Shown here in pieces: positions 8,337 through 14,306 of a stretch of 64,000 bases of DNA. The stretch comes from Candidatus Bathyarchaeota archaeon (lineage in GTDB: Archaea > Thermoproteota > Bathyarchaeia > 40CM-2-53-6 > DTDX01), in contig JAGTQY010000003.1 of assembly GCA_018396815.1 (NCBI GenBank), forward strand, positions 69,481 through 133,480, read 5' to 3'. The translations under genes and the position numbers were made by a program. Below the pieces are notes generated by a model. That model worked only from the letters and a program-made list of their open reading frames with translations. It was not told the origin of the DNA and did not search any database. Numbering within the stretch: the stretch's first letter is position 1; each line of letters starts with the position of its first letter.

Positions 8337-9536
8337 CTATACTTCTAAATTTTTACTTAATTTAGTTAAAGGTTCAATTTTAGCTTTAAAGTTAATAATG
8401 AAAACATCCTCTACTCTTACTCCACCAATTTTTTGGTTATATAATCCAGGTTCAATTGTGAATACATTCCCTTTTTTTAATTCATCTTCACTAAAAATGG
8501 AGAGAAATGGGTGTTCACCAATTGTTAATCCTATTCCATGACCTAAAGAATGAATAAATCCTTTCTCAACTTTAAAAGAGCTTTTAATTGTTGAGTAACC
8601 TTTTTTTTCAAAGAAATCGCAAACAGTATTCATAACTTCTTTACCTTTAACTCCTTCCTTAATTTTTTCAATAGCTTTTTCTTGAGCTTCTAAAACTAAT
8701 TGATGCATTTCTTTAATTTTTTTTGAAGCTCTACCAACAACTATTGTTCTAGTTATATCAGTAAAATAACCATGCTTCTCTTGAGGGAATAAATCAAAAA
8801 CTATTGGTTTATTTAAGATTAAAAAATCTTTATCGCTACCTAAATAATGGGGTTGAGCTGATTTAACTCCAGTAGCTAAAATAAAATCTTCACTTAAAAT
8901 TAACTCTTCATCAATTAATAATTGCTTTACGTAAAGTTTAACATTTTTTACAGTTGCTTTCTTCCCCTTATATAAAAGATAATTTCCTAAAACCTTTAGG
9001 TTTGAAATGAACTCTATAGTTTTCTTCATAATTTCTTCTGTTTTTCTTGAAGCATTCTTGATTTTTTCAATTTCCTCGATGCTTTTAGTTTCCATTAAAG
9101 ACTCAAGCAAAGTTGGCGTTTTTTCTATAACAATTTGATAACCAAAATTTTTAAGCGCTTCAGTAATTCTTAATATTTTTGATGCTTCATTTTTCCCAGC
9201 TAAAATTATTCTTCCAGAAACTTTATGTTCTTCAAGAATTTTTTTAAGAAAAATTAAAAAAGCTTTTTCTGCTCCGTGACTTTTCAAAATTTCTTCATAT
9301 TTATAATCACTAAAAGTTTTAATGTTTTTTACGTTTCCTTTTTTTGCTTCAATTAAATCTATAGAATTAACAATTAATAATGGGGGTTCAAAAAGTTTCT
9401 TTAAGTATACTCCTCCTCTTGGAATAGAAGTGCCAACTAAATAATGAAACTCATGGTTACTATATGTTGAATCAGCAAAAGCTACAACTGCTTCTAAACC
9501 TCTTTTCTCCATTTCTTTATCAATATCTTGAAGCAT
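8337..9536 (-). CDS. Xaa-Pro aminopeptidase/prolidase (M24B family).
   Basis: Creatinase N-terminal fold plus an M24 C-terminal domain with metal-ligand motifs (HGYFTDITRT, HSLGHGIGL, TIEPGLY). Confidence 0.7.
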   Translation of the reverse strand: MLQDIDKEMEKRGLEAVVAFADSTYSNHEFHYLVGTSIPRGGVYLKKLFEPPLLIVNSIDLIEAKKGNVKNIKTFSDYKYEEILKSHGAEKAFLIFLKKILEEHKVSGRIILAGKNEASKILRITEALKNFGYQIVIEKTPTLLESLMETKSIEEIEKIKNASRKTEEIMKKTIEFISNLKVLGNYLLYKGKKATVKNVKLYVKQLLIDEELILSEDFILATGVKSAQPHYLGSDKDFLILNKPIVFDLFPQEKHGYFTDITRTIVVGRASKKIKEMHQLVLEAQEKAIEKIKEGVKGKEVMNTVCDFFEKKGYSTIKSSFKVEKGFIHSLGHGIGLTIGEHPFLSIFSEDELKKGNVFTIEPGLYNQKIGGVRVEDVFIINFKAKIEPLTKLSKNLEV

Positions 9537-9651: not shown

Positions 9652-11958
9652 ATGAGTGCCTTAAATATGCTTTTAACTCCAGTTAAGGAAGCTGTTAACT
9701 CTTTTGAAAGAAGATTAATTGTTTTAACTGGTGAAGAAGGAGAAAATATTGGAACTAAATTAATTGAGGAGTATTGTTCTTTAAAAAAGAATGAAGTTAA
9801 CGCGCTTTACGTTGGGGATAACTTTGAAGAAAACACCTCCAGCTTTAAACGTTTCGTTAAATTTAAATGTTTAATGGAGAAGCTTAAAGAGTTTAAACTT
9901 CAAAATACTTCTTTTAAGGAATCATTAAATGTTTTAGGTTTAACTTTTGATTTACTTATTTTAGATTTAAATGAAAATTTAACACCTAATGATATTGGTG
10001 TTTTAATTGAAGTGGTTAAAGGAGGAGGTTTAATCTTATTTTTAACTCCAAAACTTTCAGATTGGGAATCATGTATAACAACTTTTCATAAAAAACTTGT
10101 TGTTTTACCGGAGGATTACATTCGATTAAGACATATATTTGTTAAATGGTTTATTAAAAAATTAAAGGAAAGTAAAGGTGTATGGATTTATGATCCACCA
10201 AATATTTATGGAGAAGCTTTACAACCTAGCGAAATTAAAAAAACTACTAATATAGAAATTGATGAAAATATTATTTTTCCAAAACAGCTTTATGAATTAT
10301 GTGTAACTCAAGATCAAATTCAAGCCCTTTCAAGTTTTGAGAAACTTTTAGATAGAAAAGGAAAAAAAGCTTTAGTTATGATAGCGGATAGAGGGAGAGG
10401 AAAATCTTCGCTGCTTGGGCTTTCAGCAGCTGGTTTACTTTTTAAACTTGGAGCAAAAAAACCTTTATTTATTACTTTTACAGCGCCTTCTCAATCAAAT
10501 TTAGCTACTGCTCTTCAATTTGTTAAAATAGCTTTTGAAAAATTGAATGTAAAAATTAAAGAGTTTAAAGTCAATAATGAAATTTCAACTTTAAAATGTA
10601 AATATGGCGTTATAGAAGTTTTAAGTCCATATAAAGCTTTAAGTAGCCGTGGGAAAATAGCTTTTATTGATGAAGCTGCAGGTATACCTGTTCCTCTTCT
10701 TTTTAAATTTTTAAGGAAATTTAGAACAGTTGTTTTTTCTTCTACAATTCACGGTTATGAAGGTGCTGGAAGAGGATTCAGCTTAAGATTTCTTAAAGCT
10801 TTAGAAGAAAATAAATCTATTGAAACAATTAAAGTTGAATTAAAAACACCTATAAGGTATAGTATTAATGACCCAATTGAAAAATGGCTTTATAACACTT
10901 TACTTTTAAATGCTGAGCCCCCTCAAATTTCTTTACCAATTGATTTAAATAAAGTATTTTATGAAAAACCAAATTTAGAAGAATGGTTTAGTTTAAACGA
11001 GAAACCTTTAAGAGAATTTGTTGGAATATGTATTTTAGCTCACTATAGAAATAGACCAAATGATTTTGCTATGCTTGCTGATGCACCCCACCATCAAGCT
11101 AGAGTGTTAAAGCTTTCATCAGGAGAAATAATTACAGTTTTACATTTAGCTGAAGAAGGAGGTCTTCCAGATGAGCTTATAGACAAAATAGCTGAAGGGG
11201 AAGATATTCCTGGAGTTGTTATTCCAAGCTGTATAATAAAACATTATACGCCTTTAAAATTCTTTGCAAAACAAAAAGGTTTAAGGATTGTTAGAATAGC
11301 TGTTCATCCTGAACTGGAAAGAAAAGGGCTGGGCTCTAAAGCTTTAAAAAATCTTATTGATGAAAGTGAAGCTCTAGGATACGATTGGATTGGTGCAGTA
11401 TTTGGTGCGACAATTCCTTTATTAAGTTTTTGGTTGAAAAATGGGTTTACACCAATTCATTTAAGTCCATCTAGAAACATAGTCTCAGGTGAATATAGTG
11501 TTGTTGTAATTAAACCTTTAACTAGAAGAGCTTTAAAATTAACGTTAACTTTAAATCAAGAGTTTAAATTGAAACTTTTAAATTCGCTTTTCACAACTTA
11601 TTTTACACTCGATCCAAAGTTAGCTAGATTGCTTTTTAAAGGAGTTGAAGAACCAAAATTATTTAAACCGAAATTAACTAAAGTTCAAGAGAAAAGACTT
11701 TTAATGTATAGTAAAGAAGTATTAACTTTTGAATCTGCTGCAGACGCTATTAAAGCTTTATTAGACGCTCATTTTATGAGCAGCGATTCAAGCAGAATTG
11801 AAGTTACACCTGAGGTAGAAGCAGCTTTAATAGCTAAATGTCTTCAAGGAAAAAGCTGGAGTTTAACAGCTAAACTTTCATTAATAAATCGTGAAGAAAT
11901 AAAAGCTATTCTTAGAGAAAACATTAAAAAAATGGTGAGTTATTACGTCAAGGATTAA
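9652..11958 (+). CDS. tmcA: tRNA(Met) cytidine acetyltransferase TmcA (ac4C34 writer, NAT10/Kre33 homologue).
   Basis: 768 aa. DUF1726 N-terminus, RecD-like helicase core (GRGKSS Walker A) and a C-terminal GNAT domain, the TmcA architecture. GGAGG Shine-Dalgarno upstream. Confidence 0.8.
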   Translation: MSALNMLLTPVKEAVNSFERRLIVLTGEEGENIGTKLIEEYCSLKKNEVNALYVGDNFEENTSSFKRFVKFKCLMEKLKEFKLQNTSFKESLNVLGLTFDLLILDLNENLTPNDIGVLIEVVKGGGLILFLTPKLSDWESCITTFHKKLVVLPEDYIRLRHIFVKWFIKKLKESKGVWIYDPPNIYGEALQPSEIKKTTNIEIDENIIFPKQLYELCVTQDQIQALSSFEKLLDRKGKKALVMIADRGRGKSSLLGLSAAGLLFKLGAKKPLFITFTAPSQSNLATALQFVKIAFEKLNVKIKEFKVNNEISTLKCKYGVIEVLSPYKALSSRGKIAFIDEAAGIPVPLLFKFLRKFRTVVFSSTIHGYEGAGRGFSLRFLKALEENKSIETIKVELKTPIRYSINDPIEKWLYNTLLLNAEPPQISLPIDLNKVFYEKPNLEEWFSLNEKPLREFVGICILAHYRNRPNDFAMLADAPHHQARVLKLSSGEIITVLHLAEEGGLPDELIDKIAEGEDIPGVVIPSCIIKHYTPLKFFAKQKGLRIVRIAVHPELERKGLGSKALKNLIDESEALGYDWIGAVFGATIPLLSFWLKNGFTPIHLSPSRNIVSGEYSVVVIKPLTRRALKLTLTLNQEFKLKLLNSLFTTYFTLDPKLARLLFKGVEEPKLFKPKLTKVQEKRLLMYSKEVLTFESAADAIKALLDAHFMSSDSSRIEVTPEVEAALIAKCLQGKSWSLTAKLSLINREEIKAILRENIKKMVSYYVKD

Positions 11959-12271
11959 AACCCTTAACTTTTCCAAAGAATATAAAGAGAAGCTTTTATC
12001 TGGAGAAAAAACCTCAACTTTACGATTAAAAACATTATTAAAGAAAGGCGATTTAGTAAACATAGTGGTTGGAGGAGAAAACTTAGGTATAGCTAAAATA
12101 ATTCAAGTAAAAAAAATAACATTAAAAGAATTATCAATTAATGAAATTAAGAAAGATGGCTTCAAAAGTAAAAAACATCTTCTTAAAGCTTTAAAAAAAC
12201 ATTATCCATCAATTAACTTAACTGAGCAAACTCCCTTATACTTAATAACCTTTGCCTTCCAATCTAAGTAA
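11939..12271 (+). CDS. ASCH-domain protein (PUA-like; the family includes the ac4C amidohydrolase YqfB). No in-frame ATG, GTG or TTG before 12065.
   Basis: From the TGA at 11936, translation gives ...KTLNFSKEYKEKLLSGEKTSTLRLKTLLKKGDLVNIVVGGE...EIKKDGF.... The LSGEKTxxLR and GD...V ASCH core lies upstream of the only conventional start (GTG at 12065). The frame is +1 relative to TmcA and the two reading frames overlap at GAT-TAA-AAC. Confidence 0.5.
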   Translation, partial: VITSRIKTLNFSKEYKEKLLSGEKTSTLRLKTLLKKGDLVNIVVGGENLGIAKIIQVKKITLKELSINEIKKDGFKSKKHLLKALKKHYPSINLTEQTPLYLITFAFQSK

Positions 12272-12378: not shown

Positions 12379-12503
12379 TGGTGGGGCTGGCCGGATTTGA
12401 ACCGGCGATCACGTGGGTTCTCGGCTTTTAACTCCCAAGCCACGTAGCCTAGACCAGATTTGCCTCGCAGCCTTTTTAAGGCTGAGATCTAGCCGACAGC
12501 CCC
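12379..12503 (-). tRNA. tRNA-Pro(TGG) with genomically encoded CCA. It appears to carry two introns: 16 nt at the canonical 37/38 site and about 30 nt in the D-arm at 13/14.
   Basis: Perfect 7-bp acceptor stem (GGGGCTG/CAGCCCC) with discriminator A and CCA. T-arm GCCGG-TTCAAAT-CCGGC. Anticodon stem CGTGG/CCACG with loop CTTGGG-G, giving U33 and G37 as expected for tRNA-Pro. The 16-nt insert pairs TTGG with CCGA followed by a 3-nt bulge, a BHB-like arrangement. Removing 30 nt restores a canonical D-loop (AATCTGGTCTA). 76 + 30 + 16 = 122 nt, which matches the locus length. Confidence 0.6.
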
Positions 12504-13064: not shown

Positions 13065-14306
13065 ATGAGAATTGTAATTATTGGTAATGGTCCCTCAGGT
13101 GTAAAAGCTGCTGAAACAATTAGAAAAATTGATGATAAATCCGAGTTAATATTAATTTCAGAAGAAAAATACTCGTTTTATTTTAGAAGGAATTTACCTT
13201 GGTTTATTGCAGGTAAATTTACTGAAGAAAAACTTACAGCTAAAAAACCTGAGTTTTACATAAAAAATGATATAAACCAAATTTTAGGTAAAACCGTAGA
13301 GAAAGTTCTTATAAAGGAAAAAGAAATTTTATTAAATTCAGGAGAAAAAATAAAATACGATAAGTTATTAATTGCTTCAGGTGCTGCACCAATAACAGGT
13401 GCTTGGATGACCCTAAACTTAAAAGGAATATTTACATTAAGAACTTTAGATGATGCTAAAGCAATTAAGGAATATATGGGGAAAGTTGAAGAAGTAGTGA
13501 TTGTTGGTGGTGGGTTACTTGGGTTAAATATGGCTGAAGTATTTTCTGAAAAAGGTTTTAAAGTTCATATTCTTCAGAGAGGTTCAAAACTTTCACCTCA
13601 AATGTTTGATTTTGAAGTTTCAAATTTTATAAAATCCAAGTTGGAAGAGAAAAATGTTGAAGTTAATCTTAATGAAGAATTAGTTGAAATTAAAGGTAAA
13701 AATGGAATCATTTCAGAAATTGAAACATCTAAAGGGCGGAGAATAAGTTGTCAACTATTACTTATAGCAATAGGTGTGATGCCAGCAATAAAGTTTCTTA
13801 AAGAAACTGAAATTAAAACTGATAGAGGTGTCTTAACAAACGAGTATATGGAAACAAATGTTCAAAACGTTTATGCAGCTGGAGATGCAGCTCAAATTTA
13901 CAATCCTTTAAAAAATCAATATTTAATTTATACTTCTTGGGCTTCAGCTTTAGAGCAAGGAGAAACAGCGGGTTTCAACATGGTTACTCAACAATGTAAA
14001 AAAAGATATATTGGAGTACCATCAAACATAGAGTTTATTTTTGGTATTCCAATAGCTTCAATAGGGTCACCGAATCCAACTGAAGAAACTAAACATAAAT
14101 TGTTACTTAAGAACGAATTAAGTAAAGGTTTATACTTAAAGTTTGTTTTAGAAAATGAAAAAGTTGTTGGTAGTTTAATTGTTGGAAAAATTGAAAAAGT
14201 GGATTTAATTAAAGAATTAATTAAACAACAAATTAATGTAGGTAAATATGAAAAAAGTCTTATTGAAGGAGAGTTTGAAAAAATATTAAATGAAGGGAAA
14301 AAATAG
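13065..14306 (+). CDS. FAD-dependent pyridine nucleotide-disulfide oxidoreductase family protein (NADH oxidase/CoA-disulfide reductase-like).
   Basis: Two Rossmann dinucleotide motifs (IVIIGNGPSG and VVIVGGGLLG) and the AAGD FAD motif. Confidence 0.7.
   Translation: MRIVIIGNGPSGVKAAETIRKIDDKSELILISEEKYSFYFRRNLPWFIAGKFTEEKLTAKKPEFYIKNDINQILGKTVEKVLIKEKEILLNSGEKIKYDKLLIASGAAPITGAWMTLNLKGIFTLRTLDDAKAIKEYMGKVEEVVIVGGGLLGLNMAEVFSEKGFKVHILQRGSKLSPQMFDFEVSNFIKSKLEEKNVEVNLNEELVEIKGKNGIISEIETSKGRRISCQLLLIAIGVMPAIKFLKETEIKTDRGVLTNEYMETNVQNVYAAGDAAQIYNPLKNQYLIYTSWASALEQGETAGFNMVTQQCKKRYIGVPSNIEFIFGIPIASIGSPNPTEETKHKLLLKNELSKGLYLKFVLENEKVVGSLIVGKIEKVDLIKELIKQQINVGKYEKSLIEGEFEKILNEGKK

Follow-up and report, generated by a model that had tools for sequence, protein, structure and literature searches.

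A 64,000-nt stretch of DNA from Candidatus Bathyarchaeota archaeon (assembly GCA_018396815.1, contig JAGTQY010000003.1, positions 69,481-133,480 of the forward strand; referred to below as the window) contains tmcA, the gene of an RNA cytidine N4-acetyltransferase, and, overlapping its 3' end, a gene for a small YqfB-type ASCH protein that has lost its canonical start codon. Alignment with relatives places the ancestral ATG of this ASCH gene at the triplet 11945-11947, which in the window is ACG. Purifying selection on the part of the gene lying 5' of the first canonical start holds without the ATG, and the gene is probably still translated in full, as a separate gene of the operon, from a near-cognate codon, of which ACG itself is the likeliest. 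Which near-cognate codon is used, its coupling to tmcA and a low level of expression are points that we infer from the sequence.

The upstream gene of the operon, tmcA (9652..11958, plus strand), was identified as an open reading frame (ORF) encoding a 768-aa TmcA/Nat10-type enzyme, with Pfam matches to TmcA_N (3e-39), NAT10_TcmA_helicase (2e-50) and GNAT_acetyltr_2 (2e-35). Its 3' end reads TAT TAC GTC AAG GAT TAA, with the stop codon TAA at 11956-11958. The +1 frame of tmcA is closed by a TGA at 11936-11938 and is then open from 11939 to a TAA at 12269-12271. A preliminary description of this DNA stated that no ATG, GTG or TTG precedes a GTG at 12065 in this frame; the ORF listing confirmed this, GTG (12065..12067, plus) being the first canonical in-frame start, and all the coordinates given there hold. 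Counted from the ACG (11945..11947, plus), the ASCH gene (11945..12271, plus) has 108 codons followed by TAA, and its assignment draws on Pfam and profile matches, a structure model and the ratio of nonsynonymous to synonymous substitution rates (dN/dS). The ASCH gene overlaps tmcA by 14-17 nt, or by 14 nt if ACG is the start. The +1 relation of the two frames stands, as an overlap, while the idea that they meet exactly at the tmcA stop does not, the start lying 12-15 nt upstream of it.

Within the 3' end of tmcA lies a Shine-Dalgarno (SD)-like motif, GGTGA (11934..11938, plus), positioned 6 nt before the ACG; the TGA with which the motif ends is the stop codon that bounds the ASCH frame on its upstream side. 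Two ATT triplets of the ASCH frame are located nearby on the same strand. For the identical gene, NCBI annotates the first (11942..11944) as the start codon, translated as Met, and in a sister lineage this triplet is ACT; the second (11954..11956) shares one base with the tmcA stop (ATTAA), is found in all close lineages and could serve as an alternative near-cognate restart codon. A run of four A residues (A4) occupies 11957-11960.

The loss of the ATG is apparent from the alignment of this junction with those of close relatives, a comparison based on contigs encoding homologues and on a junction-pattern scan of metagenomes. The nearest lineage with an ATG (L004-L006) reads ATT ATG TCA AAG ATT AAA, encoding M-S-K-I-K, whereas the window reads ATT ACG TCA AGG ATT AAA; the more distant L007 has ATG at the same position in the tmcA context CAT TAT GTC. 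Another lineage, about 86% identical to the window at the nucleotide level and here called the L012 lineage, came to light because a gene caller had cut its ASCH gene short (P0004, 75 aa, starting at a TTG), and it reads GTT ACT ACG TCA AAA ATT AAA, keeping the ACG and having ACT for the ATT at 11942 of the window. A degenerate junction pattern applied to a metagenome collection retrieved four more contigs of this lineage from different datasets, all with ACG and an intact 106-codon ORF, and the lineage comprises L012, L017, L018, L020 and L021. The substitution of ATG by ACG, a T>C change, leaves the tyrosine encoded by tmcA unaltered (TAT>TAC), and it runs against the bias of the genome, in which guanine plus cytosine (GC) makes up 29.6% of bases, TAT and TAC occur in the ratio 437:119, and ACG accounts for 7% of threonine codons. 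On a neighbour-joining tree of tmcA and ASCH nucleotides the window and the L012 lineage were grouped with 77% bootstrap support and the ATG lineage fell outside, and because both ACG lineages group together, a single old ATG>ACG event is suggested as the simpler history.

Three other assemblies of this species (GCA_038883075.1, GCA_038880715.1 and GCA_038868775.1), 99.1-99.96% identical to the window over 4-8 kb, carry the junction without any difference, and an identical protein is deposited at NCBI as 'ASCH domain-containing protein [Candidatus Bathyarchaeia archaeon]' (P0001, 109 aa, MTSRIKTLNF...), its gene beginning at the codon that matches ATT 11942. The sequence GATTAAAAC, containing the A4 run, is invariant across nine contigs of three species-level lineages (window, L004 and L012). 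The junction is not an artefact, since it is base-identical in three more assemblies and the sister lineage, with five contigs from different datasets, is in the same ATG-less state.

In order to see how the gene has evolved without its ATG, substitutions between the window and the L012 lineage were counted by the Nei-Gojobori method. The whole ASCH gene has 34 synonymous and 24 nonsynonymous differences (dN/dS 0.13), and in the 36-codon stretch running from the tmcA overlap to the first canonical start there are 13 and 6, respectively (dN/dS 0.07); for tmcA the counts are 155.5 and 146.5 (dN/dS 0.20). Compared with sister lineages, the ASCH dN/dS was 0.10-0.13. Within the L012 lineage, at 0.5% divergence, seven polymorphic ASCH codons are synonymous and four are nonsynonymous and conservative, against a neutral expectation of 21% synonymous (binomial P=0.003); upstream of the canonical start there are four synonymous polymorphisms and no nonsynonymous ones, and the TTG chosen as start by the gene caller is itself polymorphic (TTA/TTG). 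No stop codon or frameshift was found in the ASCH frame in the nine contigs of the two ATG-less lineages, which differ at about 14% of bases. Because selection persists and the frame is uninterrupted in these nine contigs, the N-terminal half appears to be translated in the ATG-less lineages now, or to have been translated until very recently.

A profile search bore out the proposal that the ORF encodes an ASCH domain: Pfam ASCH (PF04266) matches the 110-aa translation of the +1 frame with E=1.1e-12 and 49 bits (cut-off 21.2), the match spanning positions 1-100 of the 103 in the profile and starting at residue 9, the L of KTLNF. The 68-aa product starting at GTG 12065 retains only positions 42-100 (28.5 bits), in agreement with the view that this start would remove the N-terminal half of the domain. 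That half, comprising strand 1, helix 1 and the catalytic octapeptide and contributing about 20 bits of the ASCH signal, is encoded 5' of any canonical start.

The octapeptide, G21-E-K23-T-S-T26-L-R28 (12002..12025, plus), is of the GKTR type, one of the octapeptide classes of bioRxiv 10.64898/2026.02.27.708502. Its residues K23, T26 and R28 are invariant in 13 family members and align with Lys21, Thr24 and Arg26 of Escherichia coli YqfB, whose alanine mutants K21A, T24A and R26A are inactive (PMC6972931). The invariant Asp72 (in KDGF) aligns with the third member of the YqfB triad, Glu74, being acidic but shorter, and Y88 aligns with Tyr89, while His70 and Asp27 of YqfB are not conserved in the family alignment. 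The family profile matches E. coli YqfB from end to end (9kyf, E=4e-6; 1te7, E=8e-6). An AlphaFold2 model of the protein (predicted local distance difference test score, pLDDT, 87.2; predicted template modelling score, pTM, 0.73) has a PUA-like beta-barrel with flanking helices, and its best Foldseek matches are the YqfB crystal structures, with template modelling (TM) scores of 0.71-0.77 and a root-mean-square deviation (rmsd) of 2.3-2.4 Å. The top 20 matches in the PDB all have the ASCH fold (YqfB, 3s9x, PF0470, EF3133, TTHA0113, PH0355, ZmASCH and 3iuw).

Judged by these comparisons, the protein resembles YqfB in its sequence, its catalytic motif and the fold predicted for it, and it is predicted to be an N4-acetylcytidine (ac4C) amidohydrolase, an enzymatic activity for which it is so far a candidate. 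Like YqfB (PDB 1TE7, 9KYF-9KYH; PMC6972931), it is a free-standing ASCH domain about 105 aa long with a GKTR-type octapeptide carrying the equivalents of the essential Lys21, Thr24 and Arg26, together with that of Tyr89. It differs from YqfB in sharing only 22% identity with it, in having Asp for Glu74 and in not keeping His70 and Asp27; moreover, the window protein is archaeal, is encoded in an operon with tmcA, and its activity is predicted. Archaeal and bacterial ASCH proteins of both octapeptide classes strip ac4C from tRNA in vitro, according to bioRxiv 10.64898/2026.02.27.708502.

In each archaeal homologue whose contig was fetched, the ASCH gene lies directly 3' of tmcA on the same strand, with an overlap of 4-32 nt. 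These loci belong to Bathyarchaeia lineages (P0002, L004-6; P0003, L007), Hecatellales (P0005 and P0007; L008-11, L015-16) and a metagenome-assembled genome (MAG) of Aenigmatarchaeota (P0011; L013-14). A scan of GTDB species representatives returned 33 loci, the window species and its close lineages not being among them (best match 58% identity over the full length). The tmcA gene is immediately 5' in 15 of the 19 archaeal loci and in none of the bacterial ones, which are mostly from Patescibacteria; the tmcA-linked groups are Bathyarchaeia, Hecatellales, Nezhaarchaeota, Baldrarchaeota and Aenigmatarchaeota. In this comparison of orthologous loci, of the kind proposed in the preliminary description, all 15 linked representatives have a separate ASCH gene. 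Each of these genes carries a canonical start of its own, located a few codons ahead of the conserved K-x-L-N-F; it is mostly ATG, but GTG or TTG in the Nezhaarchaeota and Baldrarchaeota. When 1.84 billion cluster representatives were searched with a profile, 256 proteins were obtained at E<=1e-10, and no ASCH fusion of TmcA length was found among the best 150 of them, all of which are 80-254 aa long. Since relatives have their own starts and no protein of fusion length was found, the normal architecture is two separate, usually overlapping genes.

The adjacency of tmcA and the ASCH gene supports a role of the latter on the ac4C made by TmcA. The pairing of a writer with an eraser was a reasonable suggestion in view of the likeness to YqfB; it is not new, as the writer/eraser operon is already known from bioRxiv 10.64898/2026.08.01.741249, which describes an operon of TmcA/Nat10 and a YqfB-clade ASCH protein with the same gene pair in the same order. 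What differs is that the canonical start of the downstream gene has been lost in the window lineage. ASCH proteins are described as tRNA ac4C erasers in bioRxiv 10.64898/2026.02.27.708502, and ASCH fusions to NAT10-like acetyltransferases exist in another ASCH clade according to bioRxiv 10.64898/2026.08.01.741249; the parts of both texts consulted make no mention of start codons. The present analysis adds an archaeal example, a survey of the overlap in five archaeal groups, and the loss of a canonical start accompanied by selection.

The members of the ASCH subfamily fall into two size classes among the best 150 matches, stand-alone proteins of about 100-125 aa and forms of about 170-254 aa with a C-terminal extension. 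The long forms are found in Thermococci and Thermoprotei away from tmcA, and in Baldrarchaeota beside it (L032, L035, L036-L038, L051-L052). Five representatives (P0100, P0105, P0109, P0126 and P0162) are only 80-95 aa long, their matches starting at positions 15-36 of the profile; these may be fragments from contig ends or caller-truncated ASCH genes without a canonical start. In L009, a 105-kb contig of a Hecatellales relative (Logan SRR7042397), about 2.07 kb inside tmcA is absent, with about 14 nt shared at the junction, leaving an 80-aa tmcA remnant ORF directly 5' of an intact, identical ASCH gene (P0005; L009 3704..3873 versus L008 1625..3860). Two explanations are open for this contig: a collapse in the assembly, or a natural variant in which tmcA is deleted and the eraser retained.

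Among the readings offered in the preliminary description, non-canonical initiation is the one favoured by the evidence, and the codon can now be named, the ancestral ATG having become ACG at 11945-11947. SD-like 5-mers (GGAGG, GAGGT, AGGTG, GGTGA) precede 11 of the 63 long ORFs of the window, as against 5.5% of random 25-nt windows, and the spacers behind GGTGA in front of other window ORFs are 5-8 nt. The window, L004 and L012 lineages all have the GGTG unchanged. Measured from GGTGA, ATT 11942 is 3 nt away, ACG 11945 is 6 nt away and ATT 11954 is 15 nt away; the latter two are kept in both ACG lineages and the first is not, being ACT in L012. ACG is the best candidate because it is the ancestral start site, lies at a 6-nt spacing from GGTGA and is kept in both ACG lineages.

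The following course of events is proposed. In the ancestor, the ASCH gene would have started at an ATG inside the tmcA codons TAT-GTC, behind the GGTG SD-like motif, and a T>C change, silent in tmcA, would then have converted this ATG into ACG. The initiator tRNA would be set on the ACG by the GGTGA 6 nt upstream, and ribosomes ending tmcA translation 11 nt downstream of the ACG would probably assist, either by termination-reinitiation or by initiation that depends on upstream translation. The outcome would be a far lower yield of eraser than of writer from a single mRNA. The ASCH enzyme would hydrolyse ac4C to cytidine, acting on the free nucleoside from RNA turnover or on tRNA. The reported ac4C target motif in archaea and eukaryotes is CCG and the context at the window ACG is UACG, which speaks against the thought that TmcA might acetylate the ACG itself. 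C-to-U editing, which could restore the AUG, is not known to occur in archaeal mRNAs.

Several known systems provide precedents for such a start. Tight termination-reinitiation coupling of overlapping gene pairs has been demonstrated in Haloferax and E. coli, with a varying contribution of the SD sequence (PMC6728339). The pairs studied there by Huber et al. in 2019 resemble the present one in having co-directed genes, an overlap of a few nucleotides and an SD-like motif inside the upstream gene; they differ in their shorter overlap (4 nt or 1 nt, as against 14 nt here), whereas the present pair would restart at a non-canonical codon and its coupling is presumed. In E. coli, GFP initiated at ACG bore an N-terminal Met (bioRxiv 10.1101/063800). 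The AUU-started genes infC and pcnB of E. coli likewise have a near-cognate codon where relatives have ATG, an SD-like motif and continued selection, and a low-expression setting is a plausible role in both cases. The present case differs from them in the codon (ACG, or ATT), in the archaeal host, in the overlapping gene pair and in that the start is predicted, and no autoregulatory logic like that of infC is evident.

Against initiation at ACG stand a number of points. Translation of the ASCH gene is itself a prediction from sequence. Initiation at ACG is weak where it has been measured, non-canonical codons in E. coli giving 0.01-3% of AUG overall (bioRxiv 10.1101/063800), and a full-text literature search for archaeal ACG starts turned up no paper on the subject. 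Conservation cannot separate the candidate start codons, because the same bases are constrained by tmcA, and the start could be ATT 11942, the choice of NCBI, or ATT 11954 instead of ACG. The purifying selection would fit a frameshift fusion equally well. Two parallel losses of the ATG are also possible, the sisterhood of the ACG lineages being weakly resolved with its bootstrap of 77%.

The strongest competing explanation, which has a real though clearly smaller chance of being right, is that the ASCH gene is separate and translated, but starts at ATT 11942 or at ATT 11954, the latter serving ribosomes that restart after termination. The NCBI annotation of the identical sequence (P0001) begins at ATT 11942, and AUU is a proven bacterial start (infC, pcnB) that reaches 1-2% of AUG in E. 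coli, above most non-canonical codons (bioRxiv 10.1101/063800). ATT 11954 is present in all close lineages, lies at the tmcA stop in a geometry that favours termination-reinitiation, and would give a protein retaining the whole Pfam domain. However, ATT 11942 is only 3 nt from GGTGA, and its replacement by ACT in the other ACG lineage weakens it as a conserved start. ATT 11954, at 15 nt from GGTGA, falls outside the 5-8 nt range of the window, and it also occurs in the ATG-bearing relatives, where it is a plain Ile codon constrained by GAT-TAA of tmcA.

It is unlikely that the ASCH gene no longer yields a functional protein in the window lineage, being a young pseudogene or at most encoding the 68-aa fragment from GTG 12065. 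Such a state would agree with the disappearance of the canonical start, with the great inefficiency of near-cognate initiation where measured, and with the truncation of the gene by callers in the sister lineage. It is opposed by the uninterrupted frame in all nine contigs of the two ATG-less lineages, by the low dN/dS upstream of the canonical start, and by the excess of synonymous polymorphism in the L012 lineage, both in the whole gene and in its N-terminal part. In addition, the TTG preferred by the caller varies within that lineage, and the product of the GTG start would miss the catalytic Lys, Thr and Arg.

Still less probable is a programmed +1 frameshift within 11939-11955 by which some of the TmcA molecules would carry the ASCH domain at their C-terminus, a recoding that the preliminary description had placed at the stop codon. 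The frames do overlap in a 17-nt stretch just before the tmcA stop, with the SD-like GGTGA just upstream, and an SD-like element upstream of a +1 shift loosely recalls prfB. The resemblance to prfB extends to the +1 relation of the frames and the stop at the end of the overlap; it fails in that no slippery codon able to re-pair is found at the stop, the shift site is not conserved, and in the orthologues the gene stands apart and has an ATG of its own. The L012 sequence GTC-AAA-AAT-TAA includes a run of five A residues on which tRNA-Lys could re-pair in the +1 frame, but the window has AAG-GAT-TAA without this run, the tRNA-Asp on GAU at the stop cannot re-pair with AUU, and the best alternative in the window, AAG>AGG, is poor. 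Inspection of every 0-frame codon of the 17-nt overlap revealed no +1 re-pairing site common to both ATG-less lineages. The observed purifying selection would be explained equally well by such a fusion, and the ASCH/NAT10-like fusions of another ASCH clade, reported in bioRxiv 10.64898/2026.08.01.741249, show the arrangement elsewhere. Against this, a separate gene that has a start of its own is both the ancestral and the prevailing condition, the best 150 subfamily representatives, none longer than 254 aa, include no hard-wired fusion, and a single point substitution accounts for the lost start. Frameshifting is unlikely because there is no shared shift site, orthologues have their own starts, fusions were not found and one base explains the difference; a TmcA-ASCH fusion, whether in-frame or recoded, was rejected on the grounds of separate genes in relatives, the absence of fusion lengths among the best 150 representatives and the lack of a shared shift site.

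Finally, an error of sequencing or assembly (a miscalled base or, as had been considered, the gain or loss of 1 nt in the A4 run) that hides an ordinary start or an in-frame fusion is barely conceivable, for while homopolymer runs are error-prone and the window is probably a MAG, the junction is the same in four assemblies of the species, GATTAAAAC is unchanged in the L004 and L012 lineages as well, which disposes of the indel, and ACG recurs in five further contigs from different datasets.

The surroundings of the operon are partly conserved. A NUDIX hydrolase gene and an M24 peptidase gene, both divergent from tmcA, followed by tmcA and the ASCH gene, form an order common to the window lineage and L004; the regions compared were 8337..9536 (minus) and 13065..14306 (plus) of the window and the matching parts of L001 and L004. 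The downstream neighbour is a pyridine nucleotide-disulfide oxidoreductase gene in the window, whereas L004 has a PIN-domain gene there. A tRNA-like gene at 12379..12503 (minus), 125 nt long with 58% GC, is convergent with the ASCH gene. It has an acceptor stem GGGGCUG/CAGCCCC with discriminator A and encoded CCA, a T arm GCCGG-UUCAAAU-CCGGC and, by eye, an anticodon stem CGUGG/CCACG with the loop CUUGGG.... Inspection by eye suggests a tRNA-Pro(UGG) interrupted by two introns, the first in the region of the D arm and the second near 37/38. ARAGORN, with and without its intron option, and Rfam at the gathering threshold missed a gene at 12379..12503, where only the ends of the transfer-messenger RNA (tmRNA) model match, with 28 bits.

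Automated gene callers either truncate the ASCH gene, to 75 aa in one lineage, or assign an ATT start, and because of this the annotation of the family needs homology-guided assignment of starts. The conserved pairing is comparative evidence from archaea in favour of the recently proposed action of YqfB-type ASCH proteins on ac4C that TmcA/Nat10 has made. The window also provides a candidate for a naturally occurring archaeal start at ACG (or AUU); starts beyond AUG, GUG and UUG are poorly documented in archaea. The loss of the ATG under continued selection in two lineages suggests that very little eraser is needed relative to writer. It is plausible, though we hold it with less assurance than continued translation of the gene as such, that ACG is a real and long-maintained initiation codon in these Bathyarchaeia, throttling the eraser relative to the co-transcribed and coupled writer. 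If true, this would be a case of natural archaeal initiation at a codon other than AUG, GUG or UUG being used to fix the ratio of writer to eraser.

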